From an uncultured Desulfospira sp. (lineage in GTDB: Bacteria > Desulfobacterota > Desulfobacteria > Desulfobacterales > Desulfobacteraceae): a stretch of 64,000 nucleotides of DNA. The notes beneath the pieces are model-generated. The model was not told the origin of the DNA. It was given only the letters and a program-made list of their open reading frames with translations, and searched no databases. Each line of letters starts with the position of its first letter. Position 1 is the first letter of the stretch. Positions 10,413 to 62,995 of the stretch are shown here, one piece after another. Made by a program: the position numbers and the translations under genes. The stretch covers positions 864,001 to 928,000 of the forward strand of contig OY760175.1 of NCBI GenBank assembly GCA_963663165.1, read 5' to 3'.

Positions 10413-10495
10413 TCATCGTCTTAAAACGTTTATATCTTCGGATAAATTGTTATATAAGTTTGATTATATGAAATATTTTGTGATTGTCAATATTT

Positions 10496-10588
10496 TTATA
10501 TGAAAGTCTCATTAACATCCTGATAAGACTTTCATTATTCGTTGTGGGCGGTTCTTGGTTGGATAACCAAGGCGGCCCGTGGCCGGTA
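10496..10588 (-). repeat. ~91-bp dispersed three-hairpin repeat, copy A
   Basis: Near-identical to 20931-21023 and the 56893-57168 units. Confidence 0.9.
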
Positions 10589-20865: not shown

Positions 20866-20930
20866 AAGTCTTTTTCCAAAGTTAAAAATTCAGGGGGTGC
20901 CCCGGCAGGGCAATGCCGGCAAAAGGGCAT

Positions 20931-21023
20931 TTATATGAAAGTCTCACTAACATCTTGAGAAGACTTTCATTATTTGTTGTGGGCGGTTCTTGGTTGGATA
21001 ACCAAGGCGGCCCGTGGCCGTTA
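20931..21023 (-). repeat. ~91-bp repeat, copy B
   Basis: Begins at the TAA stop of the flavoprotein gene. Confidence 0.9.
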
Positions 21024-33633: not shown

Positions 33634-33945
33634 GGTTTAAACAATGGGAGCATACCATTTATCAATTTACGTGAGGTCATATTCAGTCGCCGTCGGATTG
33701 TTGAAGTTTGAAAATTTTTGTTTTATTTCATCTGGTTGATCCTGTTTTTCGGAAATGTTAATATTTCTTGACAAAAAGCGATGAAGCATTTACTCATACT
33801 ACTAAACTAAAGCACAATCAAATTTGGATGTCATGACTAAATCAATGAGTCGTGGTAAATTAAATGTATAGGGATGGACGCCACAAAGGTTAAAAAGTGG
33901 TTATTATTTTTATGTTTATACTGAATAGAGGAGGAATATCTACAG

Positions 33946-35808
33946 ATGAAAATTGTAAAATGGACGTTTTCCGGCTTGTTTTTGATCCTGTGTTTGCTGT
34001 TTCTTACGGCCTGCAATGGCGGCGGTGGCGGCGGCGGTGATGCTGCGGATGCCACCATCAGCGGTATTGCCGCAGCGGGCGCTCCCATAGTCGGTACCAT
34101 AAATATCAGAGGGGCAAACGGTGTCACATCCCAAAGTGCAATTCTGGCTGACGGCAGTTACGAAGTCAATGTTGAAGCCCTGACTGCCCCCTTTCTGATC
34201 TGGGCCCAGGGAACGGCCAACGGAAAGGAAGTCAAGCTTTATTCCACGGTGGACTCTACTGAGGAAAACGCCAATGTCACACCGGCCACCAATTTGGTCA
34301 TGGCCATGGCTTTAGGGGCGGACCCGGCAGACGTTTATGAGGATGATCCTGATGCGGATGTTCCTGATGCCGCTGATATAGTCAATGCGGCGGTACGGGT
34401 CCAGGAACTTTTAAGCAGTGTTTTCGCCACCCTGGAAATGGATGCAGATTTTGATTTGATGAACGGTGAATTTGTCATCGGAGAGTCCTTTGACAGGGTC
34501 CTTGACACGGTATCCTTTCAAGTAGACAGCACAGACCCTGACAATGTGACCGTAGAGATTGCCGACAAGTCCTCGGGTACAACAATGTTTGAACATAACG
34601 CTTCAAGCGGGGAAACCGAAAAGGAACTGACACCTGAGGAAGTTCAGGAGATTGTGGGGGCCAATCTCACTTTCCAGGAAGAAGCCCTGGCCATATTTAA
34701 GAAAATAGAAGCGTTATATGCGACTTCAGAGCCAACTATAGCTAAATTGAAAGCGGCGCTTCTCCCCTACATGACGTCTGATTTTCTGGATGAGGGCATG
34801 GGCCGGGAAGATTTCCTGGAAGATTGGCTGGATGAAGATGAAGGGCCAACCACCGGCATTACGATCACGGCGGTGAGTATTTACCGGGGAATGAGCAACG
34901 CTAAAACGGTGTATAATAATGTAACAATAGACGAAATGCCCGGTTATACGGAAGGAAACTGGTGTTTGGTAACATTGAGCGAAAATGGGGTTACAGAGAG
35001 TTTTATCACCTCATTTGTCAAAGACGGTGACATCGTGAAATGGTATGGCAACCAGTGTCCATTTTATGACGGTGGGGATATAGAAAGTGACCATGTTTTT
35101 GAGACGCGGGAATACGGTGGGGATAGCAAATGGTCCGGCCTTGATTTATGGGCTGAAGATGAGGGTAATGTGGCGTTGGACACCTATGGTATTAATGGGT
35201 TTATTGTGTTGCATCCAGCGTTGCCCAGTCTGACCAATATCGGTTATCCCGGCATCAACGGTCTTTTGCTTGAACGGACCAGTGATATAGATCCGGAATA
35301 TACAATTTCTTCAACAACGACATCCCATTGGATGAGTCAATATACAGAAGATGACGGTTTGAAAATTGAAGAACTCACGGCGGGTGATGAGTTTTTCTTT
35401 GTCGGGGTGGATGTTGACACCAAAACAGTCAAGCACAGCTGGATTTGCCCGCTTAATGCCGTTCCCCTCAAGGCGAGCAAACTGACCAACGCGCATTTTC
35501 CAACCATTACTACGCCAACTGATTCCGGTGATGTAAGTATTCCCGGAGAGGTCTCTGTGGCCTGGACCCTGCCCACGGCAGTAGATGCCTTTGGAGACTG
35601 GGTTTCCATTAACTTTGGTACTGGTTCCAATTGGTCAAATATGGACAACGATAATCCTGAGTGGGGTGATAAAGACTGGGTGACAACCACCTTTGATACC
35701 TCTGAAACCAGTATCACCAATCCCACCTGGTTTAATGTCCAGGTAACTGCAGAGGACGGCAGTGGCATGGCTTTTAAAAGGATTCTTTCTTTTTCACTGC
35801 CCCAATAA
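33946..35808 (+). CDS. Acidic surface lipoprotein
   Basis: Lipobox LTAC, poly-Gly linker, G.AA.GAPI, ANVTP.T. Confidence 0.85.
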   Translation: MKIVKWTFSGLFLILCLLFLTACNGGGGGGGDAADATISGIAAAGAPIVGTINIRGANGVTSQSAILADGSYEVNVEALTAPFLIWAQGTANGKEVKLYSTVDSTEENANVTPATNLVMAMALGADPADVYEDDPDADVPDAADIVNAAVRVQELLSSVFATLEMDADFDLMNGEFVIGESFDRVLDTVSFQVDSTDPDNVTVEIADKSSGTTMFEHNASSGETEKELTPEEVQEIVGANLTFQEEALAIFKKIEALYATSEPTIAKLKAALLPYMTSDFLDEGMGREDFLEDWLDEDEGPTTGITITAVSIYRGMSNAKTVYNNVTIDEMPGYTEGNWCLVTLSENGVTESFITSFVKDGDIVKWYGNQCPFYDGGDIESDHVFETREYGGDSKWSGLDLWAEDEGNVALDTYGINGFIVLHPALPSLTNIGYPGINGLLLERTSDIDPEYTISSTTTSHWMSQYTEDDGLKIEELTAGDEFFFVGVDVDTKTVKHSWICPLNAVPLKASKLTNAHFPTITTPTDSGDVSIPGEVSVAWTLPTAVDAFGDWVSINFGTGSNWSNMDNDNPEWGDKDWVTTTFDTSETSITNPTWFNVQVTAEDGSGMAFKRILSFSLPQ

Positions 35809-35861
35809 CAATAGCCGGTCGGGTTTTGTCGGTGGTTGATCCGGAATAACGGACCGTTAGG

Positions 35862-35902
35862 GAGACAAGGCCTTTAATTTTAAACAGGCCTTGTCTCTCT
35901 TT
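35862..35902 (+). terminator. Intrinsic terminator
   Basis: GAGACAAGGCCT...AGGCCTTGTCTC followed by TCTTT. Confidence 0.6.
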
Positions 35903-36002
35903 GCTGCAACACACCGGTTGGTTTTAAGGATGGCAGTCCCCTTTCCGATACGGCAGTTAAAGGGACTGCCTATCCATGGATTTAAGCAGGCCAACAGTAA
36001 AT

Positions 36003-36818
36003 ATGAAAAGACCTTTTATAATCATAAGCCTGGTTTTTATTTTAACTTTTTATGGTTTCTTTTTTGAAACCGTTAAGATGAGTGCGCTTGCCAAATCCCA
36101 GACAGTTCATAATGAAAATACAAAAAGCGTTAAGGCTGACAGAGCCAAAGATGCGCTACTTCGAAAAACGAATTTAGACCTTGAACTTTTAGGAACAATT
36201 GTCGCAGAAGGCAGTGCTTCTTATGCCATTATCCGGAATAAACATACACATGACCAGATTCTGTATTCAACAGGGGATAGAGTTAATGACGCTGTTGTGG
36301 AAAGGATCTTCAGAGAAAAGGTTGTTCTGGCGGTTAACGGGGAAAATGAGATACTGCATATTCAAAAAGGCCGTCAGGTTTTGCCGGATACCGGCGGAAA
36401 GCCAACCCGGGACTATGGAACACAACATAAGGATGGTAAAGATCATATCGCGGTAAAAAAAGAACATGTTGAACAAATAATAAATAATTTTGACGTGCTG
36501 CAAAAACTGATTCGTGTCCAACCGGTTTATTCCAATAAAAAAATGGATGGTTATAAAGTTACGGGAATAACAGCAGGTTCTGTTTTTGAAAAAATCGGTT
36601 TAAAGAACGGGGATGTTGTGGTGGGTGTCAACTCGAAAAAAATTACATCAATAGAAGATGTCGCAATAATTTATGAGGAATTTCAATCACTTGGGGACTT
36701 AAGCGATATAGATCTTGAGATAAAAAGAGAACAAAATACCGGCCCAAAACACAGGTTCCGCCGTAAAAAAAGATCCCCGAACCCATCTGCATACCGGGCT
36801 ATCTCCGGTAATAGCTGA
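36003..36818 (+). CDS. gspC: GspC-like type II secretion protein with PDZ domain, C-terminus possibly scrambled
   Basis: L.L.GT....A.I, I....V.L..NG..E.L, GS.F.K.GLK.GD. Confidence 0.7.
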   Translation: MKRPFIIISLVFILTFYGFFFETVKMSALAKSQTVHNENTKSVKADRAKDALLRKTNLDLELLGTIVAEGSASYAIIRNKHTHDQILYSTGDRVNDAVVERIFREKVVLAVNGENEILHIQKGRQVLPDTGGKPTRDYGTQHKDGKDHIAVKKEHVEQIINNFDVLQKLIRVQPVYSNKKMDGYKVTGITAGSVFEKIGLKNGDVVVGVNSKKITSIEDVAIIYEEFQSLGDLSDIDLEIKREQNTGPKHRFRRKKRSPNPSAYRAISGNS

Positions 36819-36834
36819 CAATACCCTAATAAAC

Positions 36835-36926
36835 GGAGACCGGGAACAGGAGACCGGAGGCCGGAATACGTATACCTTAAGAAGGTGCAACTCCCGGTTT
36901 CCGGTCTTCATTCCTTCAGTCTCCCC
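36835..36926. repeat. GGAGACCGG-type inverted repeat
   Basis: Related to 7762-7830. Confidence 0.5.
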
Positions 36927-37158
36927 GCAGGGGCGCCTAAGATGCCTTTACTAAACCAAGTTTAAATGATACTCTTTTTTTGAGTCATAATGAGCCGTTA
37001 AGGTAGGTTAAAATAGAGTTCGCCGGATCATCCAGCCGCTGCCAAGACATCGCAACCTCATACCGGACCGTGGCCGTTTTGCTCAAACATGCTCATGAAT
37101 TTCATTTCACCGGATCTGATCCACAGGGTAATGTCAACGTTAACGGGGTGGGTGCCGG

Positions 37159-37731
37159 ATGGGAACGAAACACACCATTTCAGAAAGTCTTGCAAGCGAT
37201 ACCTTTCCGCTTAATATCGCCATTGTGGGCGGCGGCCGGACCTGCCGGTTTTTTCTTGAGCTGATCCATGATGACCCCCTGCCGTTCTTTGATATCAAAA
37301 TACTGGGGGTGTGTGATAAAAACTCCCGGGCCGAGGGGATTCTGATGGCCCGGAAAATGGGGATATATACAAACAACAGCCTTGATGACCTGCTGAAAAT
37401 TGAACGCCTTGACAGCGTTCTTGAGCTGACGGGAAAGCAAATCGTCCTTCTTGAAATTATCCGGCTAAAACCCCGGGGGGTCGGGGTTCTTGAGTACAAT
37501 ATCAGCCGGGTGCTGCGCAATCTTCTAAAAACCCGCCAGCGGCTTGAATCAACCGAGCAACGGCTTTTGGCCGAAAAAACATTTTCCAATCTGTTGATCC
37601 GCCAGAGTACGGCGGCCATTGTTTCTATTAATACGGATTTCACCATTGTTGATGCCAATGACGCCTATCTTAAAACGGTGAAAAAGACAAAGGACCAGGT
37701 CATGGGTGCCCGCTGCTATGAAATTTCATAG
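37159..37731 (+). pseudogene. Truncated PAS sensor (Rossmann-like N-domain plus start of PAS)
   Basis: NIAIVGGG..., PAS start F.IV.AN.AYL...G..CYE, then stops next to the IS91 end. Confidence 0.75.
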
Positions 37732-37799
37732 ACAGATACAACAGATAAGAACTTGCTTTTTGACTCAAGAAGTATAGAAAAATATTGGAAGCTTGAAAT

Positions 37800-37855
37800 A
37801 TGCCCCCGCCGGGCCACAGGCACAACATGTTGTGCCTGTGGCCCGGCGGGGGCAT
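37800..37855. repeat. Perfect 56-bp palindrome with no loop
   Basis: ATGCCCCCGCCGGGCCACAGGCACAACA|TGTTGTGCCTGTGGCCCGGCGGGGGCAT. Confidence 0.95.
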
Positions 37856-38633
37856 TCGCCGAAAAAAGGGATGTCGCAGGACAGAGGTAAAAGAATAGCC
37901 TGTATCAGAAATCTCCAAAGCAAATATGAAAATTCCAAAATTTAAGCTGATTTTAAGCGCACCTCACCAGAAACCCCGCGTACAGAGAAAATCAATTCCA
38001 ATACTCAACTGCCGGGATCTGGGAGACTGAAAAGTCATAAACCAACTCAGGAATGGGATCAGAAATAACCGCCTGCGGTGGGTCATGGTTGTGGATATCC
38101 CATAAGCCCAGGTGCCGCAAAATCTTTTCGATAATATCAAGATCTTCGATAAAAGAAATAATTTTCATTTGGCCCTGACATTTTGGGCAAACCAAAGGAT
38201 CAATTTCATAAATTTTTTGGATTAATCTGGCCCAATTCTGCCTTGCTTCTTTTGAAGACATCTTATTTTGTATAATTGTCGGGATTGTGTTATCAGTTTC
38301 CGCCTTCTTTCTCATCCCCCTGGACTTGTTAGAAAAGTAACTATAGTAACGAACGGTATGCTCGTATCTTCCTGGAATATGTGTCACCAACCTGGCAAGC
38401 CAATCCAAAGCATTAAACATTTTTTGGGATTTTCCATCTTTGGCGGTATAAATGATTTTAGCAATACCATCATCAGATTTTTCGACCGGAATATAGACCA
38501 GTCTTTCCTGGGAGAAGCAGGCTCGAATGATATATCTTGCCAGGTTGCCAAGTCCGATTTTATCATCAGGCTCAATTCTGTCTCCGATATAAACTTTAAA
38601 TCCGGAATGATACCAGGAAAGCATGTTGTTCAA

Positions 38634-38652
38634 GTTTCTGCCCTTCAGGGTA
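38634..38652 (-). mobile_element. Hairpin micro-insertion
   Basis: TACCCTGAAGGGCAGAAAC. Confidence 0.75.
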
Positions 38653-38992
38653 TGATGGCATCATTTATTTTCCCCTCTTTCTTGAGCATTTTCAGCACCT
38701 CATACTGAAATGCTTCTTCCAGGTCTTCAAGCATAAATATCGGAGCAGTCTGAAAGCTGCCGTCTTTTAAGAAACAACCGTCTGAAACTATGGCGTGAAG
38801 ATGCGGATTGAAATTTAGAAAGTCGCCATAGGTCTGCACTGCAATACTGGCACCGGGAACAGCTTCTCCACCCGGGACCGTAGATTTCAGGTAAGCTGTA
38901 ATAACACTCCATGCACATTTGGAAAGTTTTGCCAGTAAAGTGCGGTCATAAAGAAAATAAATTCGTAACCGTTTAGGGATGCTGAAAACCCA

Positions 38993-39011
38993 GTTTCTGA
39001 CCTTTAGGTTA
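38993..39011 (-). mobile_element. Hairpin micro-insertion
   Basis: TAACCTAAAGGTCAGAAAC; removal restores YRQ-WVFS in frame. Confidence 0.85.
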
Positions 39012-39263
39012 TTGCCGGTATGGGACATCTTTTAAGACATTTGTCAGCAGCCATTCTCCATATTCGACAACCCTTTTCTGATGATAGGATGGGCAAAAAT
39101 GCCGGCGCTTGCAAGAAAATGCCAGAAGACACTCATGGCCACATTCTTCACAACGGACCCTGGCAAACCCCATATGAAGATCACCACAGTCGAGATATCT
39201 GTAAATTACAGTCATGACGTATGTTCGCCAATAGCCGTATCTGGATTTATACATATCATCCCA

Positions 39264-39281
39264 GTTTCTGCCCTCCGGGTA
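39264..39281 (-). mobile_element. Hairpin micro-insertion (in frame)
   Basis: TACCCGGAGGGCAGAAAC; removal gives ERV-WDDM. Confidence 0.85.
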
Positions 39282-39455
39282 CACCCGTTCCAACTCTTCA
39301 AAATGATTCTCAACACACTTGTAATATGCGCTTTCTTTGGGAGTACGCGGTTTGTAAACATCAAAATTACTTGTTGCCTGTTGGGCCATTACGCGCTTAT
39401 GTGTTAATTAGGTTTTCCAGGTGTATCAGGGTGGGCTTGGGATTGTTCAGGATGA

Positions 39456-39500
39456 GGGCAACTACTGGTTGTTGATGAAAACATACAATAATTGTTGAAT
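39456..39500 (+). other. attI-like site
   Basis: GGGCAACTACTGGTTGTTG...AAACATACAATAATT-GTTGAAT (GTTRRRY core) upstream of and divergent from the transposase. Confidence 0.4.
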
Positions 39501-39529
39501 AAACTAAACAAAAATAAAAATTGAAATCG

Positions 39530-39577
39530 CCCTAACAAAAAAATGCTGCGGATAAACCGCAGATTTTGACGTTCTGG
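39530..39577 (+). other. Compact attC-like site
   Basis: CCCTAAC-AAAAAAAT[G]CTGCGG-ATAAA-CCGCAG-ATTTTGAC-GTT: AAC/GTT boxes, unpaired central spacer, one extrahelical G. Confidence 0.65.
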
Positions 39578-40577
39578 GTGCGACACGAGGTCGCACTATT
39601 GGCTGTTTGCGGGCCTGTCGGTCCTGACCAAACCCGGCATTCTCCTGCCGGTACCCTATGTGGCATGCGGTTTCCGGTGCATCCGGAAACGGTGTGAAGC
39701 CCAACCGAAAACGTACCGAATTCCGCAATTGCGGAAGGGGTGGAAGCCGTGAGGCGGATATCCTCCTGGAAGCCTCAATCCGGTTGAGGGCAAGGGTTTG
39801 GATGATATGGTCAAATTAATTGAATGTTCCGTAAGTACCGTCACGGAGAGCAAGCTAAAGAGGCTGGTAAGCTTGGACCTAAAGGTGAGCGGTCAGGTTG
39901 CAGATTTCCGAACTACCGCGTGAGATGTTGCGCCGCCGGTGCTTAAGGGCAGGCCTAAGTCATCCACTAATTGGCAATAGTGTGGAACGTGGAAACCCCG
40001 TATCTTCGCCGGGAACATTCGGCAGGTGAAACCGTAAGGCACACTGATGAAGGTGCGGGAGTAAGATGCAGGAAAAAGCGAATGCCATCTTGTAATGAGG
40101 TGGATACGGATTGAGATGGATCTATTCTTCAACATTACCCGGCCCGAAAGGGAGCTGACGTCCGGCGGGTGTGGCTACAGACACACCCGGACAGGTGTTT
40201 CTTTGCGAGAAAGTCTGGAGAATCTTTGAAAATGGGAAAGCAAATGACGGCAATAGCTGGTGCGCCCATCAGCAGTTTATACTGTTAAAAGACTGTAGAT
40301 GCGTATCGCAAAGGTTGTTAGAGAAGCACACGACATGCACATCCAGAGGCATTTTCAAAAGACGTATGTTTTTTGACCAGAAAAAAAAGAACTGTACTTC
40401 CCTGGCGGATCATCAAAGAAGCATGCTATGGAATAACTGTAAATTTCATTATTGCTTAAACAACCGGGTGGCCCCGCAAGGCTTAGCCTTAGAAATGCTT
40501 GAGCCGTATGACGGGAAACTGTCACGTACGGTTCTGAGGGGGCTTGGGGCAGTTAAAACTGCCCCCGGCTACCCGAT
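39578..40577 (+). ncRNA. Group IIB intron ribozyme with deleted RT ORF
   Basis: 5' GTGCG; domain V GAGCCGTATGACGGGAAACTGTCACGTACGGTTC; domain VI ending CTACCCGAT; IEP relics MTAIAGAP (40244) and MRIAK (40299). Confidence 0.9.
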
Positions 40578-40726
40578 TGACAAAAAATATATGGTTCAAT
40601 ACCGTTGTTGGAAAAACCACTCTCGGAGAGAAGGAAGGAACCCTAATTGTAAAGAATTAAGGCATGTTTTTATTTATAAGTCTCTTTGTATTTAGTTTTC
40701 TAATAGCATTTTTCTCAGATTCGCCA

Positions 40727-42133
40727 TCAAGGAACTATCTGCTTTCCTGCGGCTGTCTTTAACGCCTCAACCAGCGGCCATATCCTGTCCGCTGTTTTTT
40801 CGGCAAATACGCTGCTTTCCATCTCGTGCAGTCTGTCGAACCATTTTTTATCACCGGATCTGTCGTTTCGCCAGCATTGTCGGACTTTTACCGCTTCTTT
40901 GACCAGGGCCTTCATCTCTGAATTTTCAAGCAGTAGCGTTAACATTTTTTTCCCTGTGTGCTTTTTATTGTGAAGGTAAACCTCAAGACTTTGCATCAAC
41001 TCAACCCCTGTATTGTGGTCAGTTGCTTCATCGGCTGATTCCGGTTTTTGGGTTTGCACAAGCCCACCAAGTAACCCTGCGGTTCTGGGAAATCGAATAA
41101 TAGCCGAAATAAAGGGTGCCAATGCTTTTTGCCACCGGTCCATCTCACAAAGAGCAAAAGCCCGTGCAAAATTTTCCTGCGGATAGACCATGCAGACGTA
41201 CCAGGCAGCTTTTTCTGCTTCTTCCCAGGCTCCGCTGTTTAAATACACAGGAATGCGCTCCGACATTGCAGTGATTTTTTGACCGCACTCCTTGTCCAAC
41301 TTATCGCATAGTGCAAGTGCCCGGGTGTATTCGTTATTTCGGTTGCAGGTTTGCGCCAGATAGATTATCGCGCGGATGTATGGCCGGGTTGACAGATCCG
41401 ACCAGTAACTGTCCTTCCGGATCCGCTTTGGAAAAAGTGTGCGACCTATAGTCATGGCATTTTTAAAATGCGTTTTAGCTGCTGCCAGATCATTTTTTGT
41501 CACAGCGGTAAGTCCCAGATAATTGTGGCCCTCGGCATAGTTATCCCAGCACTCAACAAACAGTCCGGCCAAGGCCTCAACCTTATCATATTCCTGATTT
41601 TCATACATTTGGGCAATAGCCTCCATTCCTTCGGCAGGTATTTCACGGCGATGCATCAATGTTCGCCAGAAAAAGGGATTGTCCTGGTTCCATTCGTTTT
41701 CTTCTTGATCTGCAAGGTCAAGCCGCCAACTGATGAGATCCCGCAGATACATAAGCTCGTGTTGCTGATTTTCCAATAGCCTTGCCGATGAAATCAAAAC
41801 CTGGGGATCTGCAATTAAAAGTTCTTTGGTAAATGCAACCATGGCATTTCGAAAGCCGTTTTCCACCCTGCTCTGCTTGTATGGATAAAGATCGGGAAGA
41901 ATAGCCATGTTATTTTTTATAGCGGCGTCCAGCTTTTTCCAATCAAACCGGATCGCTGGAAACTCATCCTCAAGGAATTGCCTGAACATCTGTTTATACT
42001 TGCCGGTTGCAGCCATGGTTTCAGCCTTTGAATAGAACACGAACAATGTCTGCTGTTCCACGGAGTTGGAGACTGAATTCCTTTGCCCATGAACGATAAC
42101 AACTTGATTGCCTTTTTTTCTGACATACGCCAT
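40727..42133 (-). CDS. Hypothetical protein with TPR-like helical region
   Basis: Long ORF with RBS GGGGAG; YAEGHNYLGL...A..HF..A TPR-like repeat. Confidence 0.8.
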   Translation of the reverse strand: MAYVRKKGNQVVIVHGQRNSVSNSVEQQTLFVFYSKAETMAATGKYKQMFRQFLEDEFPAIRFDWKKLDAAIKNNMAILPDLYPYKQSRVENGFRNAMVAFTKELLIADPQVLISSARLLENQQHELMYLRDLISWRLDLADQEENEWNQDNPFFWRTLMHRREIPAEGMEAIAQMYENQEYDKVEALAGLFVECWDNYAEGHNYLGLTAVTKNDLAAAKTHFKNAMTIGRTLFPKRIRKDSYWSDLSTRPYIRAIIYLAQTCNRNNEYTRALALCDKLDKECGQKITAMSERIPVYLNSGAWEEAEKAAWYVCMVYPQENFARAFALCEMDRWQKALAPFISAIIRFPRTAGLLGGLVQTQKPESADEATDHNTGVELMQSLEVYLHNKKHTGKKMLTLLLENSEMKALVKEAVKVRQCWRNDRSGDKKWFDRLHEMESSVFAEKTADRIWPLVEALKTAAGKQIVP

Positions 42134-42165
42134 ATGCTCCCCCTGATGTTGTGTTTTTTTGTATA

Positions 42166-42192
42166 ATTGCACAACAGCACGAATTGTGCAAT
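42166..42192. promoter_or_regulatory. 9-9-9 inverted repeat, possible operator
   Basis: ATTGCACAA-N9-TTGTGCAAT about 30 bp upstream of 42133. Confidence 0.45.
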
Positions 42193-42403
42193 AAATCATT
42201 TGCGCACAACAACCTTGTAATTTAAAAAAAGAAGAAAGTCATACCGCGCATAGCCAGGTTAACGATGAAAAGAGAAGAAAGCATTTGGTGGTCGCCTTTT
42301 GATGTTAAAATGGAGCCTTTACAGGAATTTTTAACAGGCCTTTTGATTTATATTTTCGTCTGATATAATGCTGAAAAATATATCCGGGAGGTACAAAAAA
42401 ATC

Positions 42404-42628
42404 ATGAGAGTAACCAATACATCAATATTTGATTTAAGCCCACCAGAAAAATTGCAGTTGGTACAGGATTTATGGGATGATCTGGCTAACACTGCATCTG
42501 ATGTCCCCATTCATGAATGGCAAAAACAAGAATTGGCCAAGAGAAAGGCTAACTTAATGACCAATCCGGCTTCTGGGCTATCATGGAACGAGGTAAAGCA
42601 AAAAGTTCGAAGTCCATATGGACGCTGA
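42404..42628 (+). CDS. Addiction module antitoxin component
   Basis: LSPPEKLQLVQDLWDDL...W...EL..R...SW.EVK. Confidence 0.88.
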   Translation: MRVTNTSIFDLSPPEKLQLVQDLWDDLANTASDVPIHEWQKQELAKRKANLMTNPASGLSWNEVKQKVRSPYGR

Positions 42629-42918
42629 ACTCGTCATAGCACCTGAGGCTCTTCAAGATGTTCATGAAGCCTATAACTGGTATGAAAACAGAAGGACTGG
42701 CCTGGGTGAAGATTTTTTGAGTTGTGTGGATGCCTGTATCCAAAAAAATATGCCGGGCACCTGAATTATATATGAAGGTTCATGAGAACTATCGACGGGC
42801 ACTGGTGAGGCGCTTCCCATATGCTGTATTCTTTGAATTTGCAAATAAAAAGGTGATTGTTTACAGTATATTCCATATTTCTCAAAATCCAGGAAAATGG
42901 AAATTCCGCTTAACTTGA
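42618..42918 (+). pseudogene. RelE/ParE toxin, frameshifted in an A7 run
   Basis: MDAEL.IAPEA.QD..EAY.WYE..R.GLG.DF joins RRAL.RRFPY only after a shift at CAAAAAAAT (~42741). Confidence 0.8.
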
Positions 42919-43053
42919 TCAAGATTGTACAATCATAGAAAAACAAGCTCTTGAATTTCTTATTTATCCCGAGGAAAGACTTTTAAATACTTCATAACAA
43001 AAACATGCTGCGGGCAAGCCACAGATGTTTTTGTTAATCCTGACGGGAGACCG

Positions 43054-43185
43054 GATGTGGACCAGGTGCATGTGGACCAGGAAAATAAAATCGTTACCAC
43101 GCCGGCTTATATGCTGGGACCTGGAATCAAAGACGCGGCCAAAGGAATTGAAAAACTGGTTCTGAAAATAATTGAAATGGCATGA
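43054..43185 (+). pseudogene. elbB: C-terminal fragment of ElbB (DJ-1/PfpI glyoxalase)
   Basis: VDQENKIVTTPAYML...AKGIEKLV. Confidence 0.75.
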
Positions 43186-43588
43186 TAAAATTCATGTTTG
43201 GCCGTGTGTCTGTGACAGTCTTTGTTCGTCCGTGTTTTTTGCAGGAGAGGCTATTCTCGCGAAGCCATCGTGGGCATGGCCCACTCCTTCCCAAAATCGA
43301 AATTCATCCCAAGATCGATTTGATAGCGTTCCCTATAGCGATAGCGAGTTCGGTAGGGTAGGTACACTTTATTATAAATGCGGGTTACCCTGACTCTGTG
43401 GATGGGCACCCTTGACAAATAAAATAAAGCCTGATTAAAAAGGATGTTATTAAAATTCATTTTACCCCGCTGCAGCTGAAAACAGAAATCATAAACGGCA
43501 CTCAAGATTAGAGAATTCCAGAGAAGATCTGCCAAAAATCCTTTTGGCAGGGTCGATCTGTTTTTACTTTAAAGGAGGGGAAAGCATC

Positions 43589-47079: not shown

Positions 47080-47196
47080 ATGGGAGCAACCGCCTATCTG
47101 CTCAAAAATGCCGCGATGAAAAAACGGCTGCTTGATGCTAAAAACCGCACGGAAGGAATACCTTTTGATAAAGCCTGCCAGGATCTTGGAGTTTGA
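47080..47196 (+). pseudogene. C-terminal part of a YefM-like antitoxin
   Basis: ATAYLLKN.AM.KRL..A...EGI.F. Confidence 0.6.
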
Positions 47197-47434
47197 TGCC
47201 AACGGATTTGAGGACCTTGCCTGGTGGATCGAAAAGGACAGAAAAAAGGCCCAAAAAATCGTTAAACTCATCAAGGAAGTCCAACGCCAACCGTTTGAGG
47301 GGACGGGCAAGCCCGAACCCCTCAAACACGAACTGTCTGGATGCTGGTCACGACGGATTGGCCGGGAACACCGGCTGGTCTAACTGGTCTTTGATGAAAA
47401 AATCAGGATATTGGCTTGTAGATATCATTATTAG
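47186..47434 (+). pseudogene. yoeB: Txe/YoeB toxin with internal stop
   Basis: PFEG.GKPEPLKH.LSG.WSRRI..EHRLV*; TAA at 47381-47383, frame continues to CRYHY. Confidence 0.88.
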
Positions 47435-47619
47435 CTGAACTCTTGTTTAGCTGTCAAGCTTGACCTTGGTTGGTTTCTTAAAACGCCTTTTTTGCCCTCA
47501 AAAACATCAATATAGGCCCCCAAAAGGGGATATTTTTAAGGCTAACTGATTGATTATAAATCATTTTGCTTGGTCCGACCCCGACTCAACGACTCACTTG
47601 CTCATGGCCCGACTCATGA

Positions 47620-47945
47620 CTCAACTTCAATAGACGCACTTTGACCGCTTTCGGCTTCCTGGCCGTTTACACTGCGCAGACTTGCCGCTGCATAGGTGTA
47701 GGTGCCTTCCTGGTCCGGCTAGTCTGTATATTGTGTGGTGTCAAGGGTGGTTTAAAGGGGAAAGTTGAACTTGCCCGGGAGCCATCCGGTACTCCACATA
47801 TCCTGCGGCAGAATCCACGGCATTCCATGTAAGGCTGATCTTTCCTGCCGGCATACTGACTCCGGCAAGGCCTGCGGGCGCTTCCAAGGGGGGCAGATCC
47901 CCCTGGTAAATCTGGAAGGCATTGTCATCACTGGCCTTGTTTGAA
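47620..47945 (-). pseudogene. Fragment of an FN3-containing surface protein
   Basis: AP.GL......ISLTW.AV..A.GY..YR, then TQYTD*...TY.Y with frame breaks. Confidence 0.55.
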
Positions 47946-48182
47946 AAAAACTTGCCCAACTTGAAAAATAAAGGCACACTAAAAAATATGATCAAAAATA
48001 GCCTGATTGTAATAAAATAATGGAGTGACTATGGTATTAGCTGACAGGGCGTTGATGCAGACCATCAAGGAGATAGACAACCTGACCGAAGAGGACCGAA
48101 CCACGACAAAAGAGGTATTAAATACATTTATTATTAAACACCGTTTCCAGCGTTTGGCGTCCCAAACAGGCCTGTAGCATTT

Positions 48183-48500
48183 ATGGAACATGACATATTG
48201 AACCGCATACAGAAAAGTGCGGAAAAACAAATACTGTTTCTTCCCCATGCTGTACGCCAGATGTCAAGGCCGGACAGGATGATAAGCACCAGGGATATCC
48301 GTTACGTGATCGAAAACGGTGAGGTCATAGAAGATTATCCGGAAGATGTCCGGGGCCACAGTTGCCTTGTCCTGGGCTGCCCTGATCATGCGATCCATGT
48401 TGTTTGTTCTCCCAAACCGGACTATCTTGCCATTATAACCGCTTACCTGCCCGACGAACAGGAGTGGGAGAACGATTTTAAAACAAGGAGAAAAACATGA
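48183..48500 (+). CDS. DUF4258 toxin-like protein
   Basis: HAVRQM, GEVIEDYPED.RG.SCL.LG, IHVVC, IITAY.P...W. Confidence 0.88.
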   Translation: MEHDILNRIQKSAEKQILFLPHAVRQMSRPDRMISTRDIRYVIENGEVIEDYPEDVRGHSCLVLGCPDHAIHVVCSPKPDYLAIITAYLPDEQEWENDFKTRRKT

Positions 48501-53122: not shown

Positions 53123-53200
53123 TAAACGGTCACGGACCGTCCCGGGTTATCCAACCAAGAACCGTCCTAAACGAATAATGAAAGTTTTTATAAGTAGTTA
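53123..53200 (+). repeat. ~91-bp repeat, degenerate copy C
   Basis: CGGTCACGGACCG..GGTTATCCAACCAAGAACCG..AATAATGAAAG. Confidence 0.8.
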
Positions 53201-56892: not shown

Positions 56893-57168
56893 TAACGGTC
56901 ACGGACCGTCTTTGGTTATCCAACCAAGAACCGGTCCACAACAAAAGATGGAAGTCTTTACGGGTAGTTAGTCAGACTTTCATATAACGGCCACGGGCCG
57001 TCTTGGTTATCCAACCAAGAACCGCCCACAACAAATAATGAAAGTCTTCTCAGGAGGTTAGTGAGACTTTCATATAAACAGCCACGGGCTGATTTGGTTA
57101 TCCAACCAAGATCCGCCCACAACAAATAATGAAAGTCCTCTCAAGATGTTAGTGAGACTTTCATATAA
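56893..57168 (+). repeat. Three tandem copies of the ~91-bp repeat
   Basis: Units start at 56893, 56985 and 57075; no spacers. Confidence 0.93.
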
Positions 57169-62889: not shown

Positions 62890-62995
62890 TAACGGCCATA
62901 CCCTAAAGGGCAGAAACCGGGCCGCCTTGGTTATCCAAGCGAGGCAGCCGGCAACAAAGATTAAAAGTCACCTTTGTTAAGGGACTTTCTCATAA
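62890..62995 (+). repeat. Divergent ~91-bp repeat (copy G) carrying a 19-bp micro-insertion
   Basis: TAACGGCCA[TACCCTAAAGGGCAGAAAC]CGGGCCGCCTTGGTTATCCAA. Confidence 0.85.

Follow-up and report, generated by a model that had tools for sequence, protein, structure and literature searches.

In the parts of the literature cited here, ISCR1 (ISCR, insertion sequence common region) is described as having a conserved oriIS and no working terIS; it is located behind the 3' conserved segment of an entire intI1 integron, and integron DNA on its terIS side is mobilised in a one-ended manner (PMC3575428, PMC5732528). The present analysis concerns an element at positions 37741 to about 43055 of a 64-kb window, that is, the whole stretch of DNA analysed (G000:C1:864001-928000), in the 6.74-Mb single-contig genome of an uncultured Desulfospira sp. 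(G000, the host of the window copy). G and L numbers denote genomes and element loci, and P0001 is the intact transposase copy of G000. The window feature is a dead copy of a rolling-circle element from marine sulfate-reducing bacteria, with a 48-bp attC upstream of its transposase gene. It is an ISCR-type element with a built-in attC, which would probably be loaded by a host IntI in trans and the cassettes of which would be carried along by one-ended transposition. As far as those sources describe ISCR1 and the complex class 1 integrons, it resembles them in its ISCR-type single-tyrosine HUH transposase, its oriIS and its one-ended mobilisation; unlike them, it has a single attC that is fixed and vertically inherited at the element end and faces away from the transposase, with no intI travelling along.

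Other described systems are similar in some respects. Beside sul4, ISCR28 and ISCR20 have an attC that coincides with the end of the transposase gene or lies immediately behind it, which is read as passive shuffling as a cassette, and the part of that paper cited here holds no data for the attC sites reported after ISCR28 (PMC12772301). An attC is thus found next to an ISCR element in both cases; here it lies upstream of the transposase, so that the element would receive and carry cassettes. For IS91, IS801 and IS1294, an oriIS 3' of the gene, a subterminal palindrome, the absence of target duplication and one-ended events are described in the cited part of PMC13181058. The present element shares the first three, and probably the fourth, and passes the NF033538 model; it differs in having a single tyrosine, no orf121, no tetranucleotide target of the GTTC/CTTG type at 71 junctions and no defined terIS cut, although a residual preference for an end point is possible. 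Single attC sites lacking integron-integrases (SALINs) and small clusters of such sites (CALINs) have no nearby intI and are served by a distant IntI, their listed origins in the cited parts being attG insertion, intI loss and rearrangement (10.1101/2022.09.11.507474, PMC4889954). By comparison, the integrase-less site described here comes with a transposase of its own and is copied from place to place in the genome. Finally, the cited part of PMC7923331 reports one case of a group IIB intron, UHB.I2, just downstream of an attC and in cassette orientation; the same placement is found here for 15 of 16 insertions of one intron family. Full-text searches outside subscription journals and insertion sequence databases revealed in the portions seen no IS91 or ISCR element with an attC fixed upstream of the transposase. 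An ISCR-type element with a built-in, used attC is a real variant that has apparently not been described.

The hairpin at 39530..39577 on the plus strand is, by its geometry, its fold and its model score, a real, ultra-short attC. It starts with TAAC in the R'' box (39530-36), followed by 8 nt, an unpaired, extrahelical G at 39545, a 6-bp stem, 8 nt and GTT at 39571-39573 in the R' box (39571-77), with the crossover G|TT at 39571/39572. This is the attC arrangement of R''-spacer-L'' with an extrahelical base and L'-spacer-R' (GTTRRRY-like), and the folding z is -4.1 for the top and -4.9 for the bottom strand. The site was scored with a covariance model that was self-built from array sites instead of IntegronFinder's own; it was made from 18 unrelated sites, most of which come from IntI arrays of relatives, the short family not being represented. 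The hairpin is its best match in the window (28.8 bits, E 1.3e-4), partly helped by a training site that is a close longer relative (L263:1133-1191, 59 bp), and it falls within the range of the array attC sites of G000 itself (24.5-60 bits). A genome-wide run of the model scored 150 of 2053 candidates and thereby missed short hairpins; among 20 clade loci, the model finds the element-borne site in 15, at 15-27 bits. The initial annotation, which had recognised the attC geometry and proposed such a model as a check, is thus confirmed, as is its remark that the site is shorter than usual (48 bp, against 59-138 bp in 35 array sites). It had counted only one attC, and this needs correction: a second member of the same family occurs at 42992..43039 on the plus strand (bottom strand -14.1 kcal/mol), although it is weak under the independent model (13 bits, E 1.3). 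The two sites have one orientation and lie 3.4 kb apart, without a nearby intI. One contig of run X1 covers 39445-39600 and another 40520-43400, both with 0 differences to the window, a support that is not independent since X1 is possibly the source sample. A low-depth X1 contig joins 43030 to 39571 with five extra letters; an excised cassette is a less likely explanation for it than the hairpin plus intron of another strain.

The minus-strand transposase gene (37992..39389), which had been assigned to the IS91 family, does belong there. It is a pseudogene in three pieces running from 39389 to 37992, with Zn_Tnp_IS91 and Y2_Tnp domains. In comparison with the intact copy (P0001, 446 aa, G000:4957953-4959293), to which the window element has 91% DNA identity over the element length, it is broken by 18-19 bp insertions of one motif (38633-38651, 38992-39010, 39263-39280) and by one 1-bp insertion. 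P0001 matches PF14319 and PF04986 and exceeds the NF033538 IS91-family model (176.5 bits, cut-off 125); a PDB sequence search gave no match. Two catalytic tyrosines are the motif of IS91 proper, and "Y2", as the enzyme had been called, is correct only as a Pfam name. The HLH motif is at 184-186, Y267/R270 are positioned as in ISCR1 (29% identity), and since the RYxxR motif and the zinc-finger-like cysteine pairs of the C-terminus align with ISCR1, P0001 is of the ISCR type and not a two-tyrosine enzyme. It represents a lineage separate from ISCR clade Ia, given a score of only 144 bits that is far under the cut-off of 925 for that clade. The motif of the 18-19 bp insertions also occurs within some 17 copies of an intergenic repeat of G000 and in elements of relatives; possibly, it is a tiny mobile unit or an excision footprint.

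The association of hairpin and transposase is a property of one clade. The element set was drawn from 74 genome loci, 77 metagenome loci and 11 further loci, giving 78 non-redundant elements with at least 170 nt present upstream of the transposase start; six hairpin labels were corrected by hand, and elements outside the tree were placed in or out of the clade by hand. The hairpin is full in 25 of 52 clade elements, cut in 14 and lacking in 13, and it occurs in 0 of 26 elements outside the clade. A quick protein tree of the 68 sufficiently long rows places all hairpins in one clade of 35 rows (SH-aLRT 99) and none among the 33 others. The clade is mainly found in Desulfobacteraceae, its hairpins beginning 111-162 nt ahead of the transposase start. 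The proposal that homologues have an attC upstream without an adjacent intI therefore stands within the clade, no intI being present near any element. The GGCAACTAC.GGTTG motif that was expected to accompany it is not common to the clade; it is confined to this sub-lineage, with 2 places in the genome, and is absent from most relatives.

Among 18 hand-picked full hairpins, column identity is 85% in a pair of promoter-region boxes discussed below, 60% in the spacer before the hairpin, 90% in the hairpin and only 41% in the ten columns after GTT. Pairing is found in 96% of hairpin cells, with one compensatory pair. A strict pattern retrieves 33 sites of the family, distributed over 19 of 121 family genomes (reversed control 0); of the 30 sites that were fetched, 10 have a transposase upstream, 3 have only its promoter region and 17 are solo hairpins, of which 8 are no more than 70 bp away from a gene end. 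Nine pattern matches in viral contigs all lack the R'' arm and are due to chance. With the attC model, 22 outgroup loci yielded two weak matches and 16 further ones yielded matches only in L065, on the oriIS side. One of the two weak matches, L239:1130-1164, is a decayed attC from a different family; it lies some 130 bp upstream of the transposase of an outgroup element (61% identity), with the same orientation, which indicates that attC and transposase are occasionally juxtaposed independently. In L038/L255 (G003:C3, upstream of 1082326), the CAAC box of the promoter is joined straight to a different attC-like hairpin that takes the place of the short one, at AAC and not at GTT.

It could be imagined that the attC was picked up once and has been kept merely by its proximity (0-35 bp) to a promoter that is needed, or as a terminator shielding the gene, and that occasional use by IntI brings no benefit. 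On the transposase strand, the hairpin resembles an intrinsic terminator; it is missing or cut in half of the clade, and related outgroup elements have spread without it, to 14 places on one Trichlorobacter plasmid. Nevertheless, the R boxes, the 5-nt spacers and the extrahelical bases, which a terminator does not require, have been conserved (AAC..GTT pairs 96%) next to a spacer that drifts, and the explanation appears rather unlikely.

The favoured reading, a built-in attC that is loaded by IntI, is consistent with what lies behind the hairpin. In total, 24 distinct sequences follow its GTT. Complete cassettes with an R'' complementary to the junction R' are present in four loci. In L003, the intact G000 copy, a 119-codon gene comes after G|TTATGC, and its stop lies inside GCATAAC, the exact complement, which opens a degenerate attC; L173 has three further attC sites, L137 has one (31 bits) and L240 has one by inspection. 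An automated cassette-match test was positive for 3 of 22 junctions, against 0.15 in shuffles. Furthermore, three copies in G012 run into DNA that matches a cassette start of the IntI array of G000 from the crossover base on (83%, 224 nt). Crossover at G|TT, with a cassette R'' matching the R' at the left border, is thus found in the four loci named, with the homology in L051 pointing the same way. A member of the hairpin family also resides in a true IntI array, that of G003, ahead of a matching cassette. Hairpin junctions are found inside open frames less often than oriIS junctions (4/22 vs 31/70, p 0.04). The arrays are tiny, with 0-3 cassettes that are often truncated; incomplete cassette genes are frequent, as would be expected from one-ended copying.

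In the window itself, a group II intron without an open reading frame is inserted 4 nt after GTT (39578..40577, plus strand; Rfam RF02012, RF00029). Its removal reveals, as anticipated, what resembles a cassette start, with an ATG at 40591. From its sequence, this first-cassette remnant (40578..40726, plus strand) is either a 34-codon reading frame from 40591 or a gene tail in another frame, and it has no homologue in 161 genomes. In G000, the intron family has 16 5' ends. Of these, 15 follow an attC GTT/GTC core at a distance of 3-4 nt, at other attC families in 14 cases and at the window hairpin in one, while the remaining end lies within another intron. An intron that homes to attC sites uses the short hairpin in the way it uses the long attCs, which is an independent reading of the site as an attC, given also at L140. 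Group IIC-attC introns, which enter the bottom strand and the R'' box in an orientation opposite to the cassettes, were considered and do not fit an insertion in the top strand 3-4 nt after the R' GTT; the intron is probably of class IIB/CL1, judging from its long domain 5 and from features of the reverse transcriptase (RT). The family occupies arrays of G000 at 1.86-1.89, 4.18-4.19 and 5.54-5.58 Mb, and an RT-bearing copy (G000:5573174-5574760) has RVT_N, RVT_1 and GIIM domains. Other insertions are seen near attC sites. Short GC-rich palindromes, perhaps attC-homing elements as well, stand just after GTT in L027, L058, L107, L129 and G000:4919131; the hairpin of L027 is followed by the end of a group II intron in reverse, and similar sequences follow other attCs. 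Two-gene recombinase and IS91 elements occur beside attC R''/R' boxes in the G000:1884151 region, L143 and L140; unlike these, the present element lacks a recombinase, carries an attC and is inserted at unrelated sites.

At its other end, the element is anchored. All other copies in the genome begin at the oriIS end (37741..37761, plus strand), the start of the transferred strand, and its motif is kept downstream of relatives' transposases down to about 45% transposase identity. Subterminal to it lies a perfect palindrome with 28-bp arms (37800..37855, folding z -9.8), the arms of which vary between relatives yet remain complementary. HUH transposase domains, an oriIS 3' of the gene, the subterminal palindrome and the absence of terminal inverted repeats and target duplication are those of the IS91 family; a single-tyrosine transposase with a C-terminal extension, and variable passengers from one-ended mobilisation of adjacent DNA, are those of the ISCR subgroup. 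Left of the element, short iterations of the oriIS tip are found at the junction (37728..37740), and the tip is repeated at 18 of 71 distinct junctions against 0 in a control window. Tandem re-iterations are seen at 37728-37741 of the window and at the downstream ends of L038, L211, L030 and L069, which suggests abortive rolling-circle rounds re-inserting at the element's own end. No target 4-mer recurs at the 71 distinct oriIS junctions, and the idea that the element targets attC sites was rejected, as an attC adjoins 0 of the 71.

The intact copy has two siblings, of 559 bp (100%) and 1320 bp (99.9%), that begin at oriIS and stop inside the gene, indicating recent activity without a fixed terminator. 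Copies within one genome share about 95, 500, 920, 1420, 1750 or 2700 bp past the hairpin; the end of a copy may thus lie within the gene, within the hairpin or as much as 2.7 kb past it. No fixed terIS is evident and the transposase likely has no fixed terminator; from the oriIS-anchored copies and the tip iterations, we infer rolling-circle transposition. As the copies start at oriIS and end at variable points, cassettes would ride along by one-ended transposition. On the left flank, outside the element, the 5' half of a PAS histidine-kinase gene has been cut (37159..37727, plus strand), its 88.6% match to an intact paralog stopping at 37727; an intact syntenic gene is present in G012. An empty site was sought, and the flanks do not join into one gene for either the window copy or the intact copy. 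The block 33643-37727 comprises a gene for a 620-aa lipoprotein-like protein, a gene for a type II secretion system protein C-like product and the PAS kinase half; its counterpart in G012 sits within the locus found at G000:6.197-6.215 Mb, and the window block appears to be a displaced second copy.

Alternatively, the hairpin might be the terIS itself, an attC co-opted as a subterminal palindrome and cut after GTT(N), with the downstream DNA being the target. The cited part of PMC13181058 describes the IS91-family terIS as a single imperfect palindrome beside a GTTC or CTCG cleavage site. The window reads GTTC at the hairpin end, and different lineages diverge at GTT. However, the base after GTT varies (A 9, G 4, C 3, T 2; n=18), copies within one genome extend far beyond the hairpin, left and right flanks never rebuild one gene where this was checked (PAS kinase, TtcA), and the DNA at the hairpin junctions is cassette DNA with matching R'' boxes, so that a terIS seems quite unlikely.

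With regard to loading in trans, as the favoured reading has it, G000 contains one intact IntI (G000:4194663; 456 bits, cut-off 265) with an array, 3.3 Mb from the element, and two large detached arrays of 127-bp attCs; IntI is encoded in 73 of 121 family genomes. In agreement with the initial annotation, the window has no tyrosine integrase: none of the 71 PF00589 matches in the genome falls within it, and there is no intI fragment nearby. Because a true IntI exists elsewhere in the genome, the transposase is unlikely to be the recombinase, and because the junctions show the IntI signature of a G|TT crossover and matching R''/R' boxes, it would act as a carrier and not as a replacement for the integrase. 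IntI in trans seems the simplest agent at the hairpin. An integrase-free integron, in which the transposase itself inserts cassettes at the hairpin, would accord with the absence of intI near any element and with three host genomes without an IntI match, and cuts after G and after GTT are indistinguishable in sequence. This capture system is nonetheless very improbable, since matching boxes and homology to IntI-array cassettes point to IntI products, most hosts encode IntI, and sister clades with near-identical motifs have no hairpin.

The GTTGAAT that was put forward as an attI core is indeed located at 39494-39500, 105 bp upstream of the transposase start. It is, however, part of a conserved promoter-region repeat of paired boxes, GTTG..CAAC / GTTG..AAAC (39466..39512), which is probably the promoter or operator of the transposase. 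Of 16 aligned rows, only 9 have GTT in the core and 3 the full GTTRRRY, and there is no sign of recombination: nothing has been captured between it and the attC. No sigma-70 consensus is matched in 39380-39600, and a LexA/SOS box was rejected, as the paired boxes have no match upstream of recA, lexA or intI. That GTTGAAT is the attI of a remnant integron, with the insertion sequence in the place of a deleted intI, is largely refuted and hardly credible, for although the layout mimics intI-attI-cassette in position and orientation and an AAC-7 nt-GTT spacing is present, the core is not conserved, no element has more than about 35 bp between it and the attC, the true attI region of G000 is unrelated to the window boxes and no intI fragment is near.

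The anatomy, the attC geometry, the clade-wide linkage, the cassette-type junctions, the oriIS-anchored copies of variable length and the intact IntI could be brought together as follows. An ancestor would have landed backwards just upstream of the attC of a cassette and so picked it up once, pointing away from the transposase, in cassette orientation. A host IntI would probably insert or swap cassettes in trans at the G|TT of this attC. Copies made by the transposase would comprise oriIS, the transposase gene, the attC and cassette DNA of variable length, and would go to new, sequence-nonspecific sites. The unit from 37741 to about 43055 likely arrived by one event and would then have been killed by the intron and the small insertions. 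In effect, the element can be regarded as a mobile integrase-less cassette site, without an adjacent intI or an attI entry site, and not as an integron, and its transposase would not replace IntI. Of the interpretations in the initial annotation, the mobile integrase-less array is thus retained, while the integron platform, with 0-3 cassettes, and the HUH-driven capture are not.

Several observations weigh against this reading. The element-borne site reaches only the 15-27 bits mentioned in relatives, and the hairpin is shorter than all array sites harvested. It is dispensable for spread, given the clade elements in which it is lacking or cut, and the counts overstate independence since the rows are related. 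The first "cassette" of the window has no matching R'', a complete cassette is seen by inspection at only 4 of 24 junctions, and a test for a ribosome site plus start did not discriminate (5/22 hairpin junctions vs 25/70 oriIS flanks). Further attC sites within 8 kb are rare in 74 loci, in a scan of low sensitivity. Finally, G046 (complete), G104 and G116 have element-borne hairpins and no IntI match, and neither element copy of G046 is followed by a gene cassette.

A step further, the association might be a selected partnership of two systems that work on single-stranded DNA, in which the transposon keeps the attC as a loading dock and becomes a mobile cassette carrier without an integrase, seeds attC sites and small integrase-less arrays across the genome, and welds the attC to new genes by insertions and deletions just 5' of R''. 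There are hints in this direction. The solo hairpin G000:4923774 is identical over 44 bp to the private variant of the element and is joined at AAC to DNA found elsewhere without a hairpin, and a solo site and an element in G065 share a loop variant. The creation of cassettes from resident genes finds no support, as the two solo sites checked against G012 are both in strain-specific inserts. On balance, we consider such a partnership unlikely.

Within the moved unit, the first-cassette remnant is followed by a passenger gene for a TPR-repeat protein in reverse orientation (40727..42199, minus strand), fragments of which occur in two other genomes. Next is a cassette-type pair of an addiction-module antitoxin gene and a frameshifted ParE-type toxin gene (42368..42919, plus strand), with a homologue in G070 that is followed by a long attC. 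Past the second short attC, the 3' fragment of an elbB-like gene (43056..43185, plus strand) is the likely right flank; homologues match from 43056, and no 5' part is present in this genome. Elsewhere in the window, a dispersed modular intergenic repeat of about 91 bp is found at 10495-10588, 20930-21023, 53125-53200, 56894-57167 and 62918-62943, in tandem at 56.9-57.2 kb. Further toxin-antitoxin genes (YoeB-like, DUF4258) lie at 47132-48500, with a related block at G000:1261417-1263078; no attC was found there.

According to the cited part of PMC4889954, cassette clusters without an integrase are common, and how they arise is an open question. The lineage described here seems to be a natural vehicle, with a single gene, a single origin and a minimal attC that a distant IntI would load, and it would explain some of these clusters. 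The logic of ISCR1 would thus have been reached independently in environmental sulfate reducers, before antibiotic selection. An intact, recently active copy is present in the same genome, and the 48-bp site offers a natural test of the minimal working length of an attC. If the partnership were true, it would provide a concrete route to the creation of cassettes.

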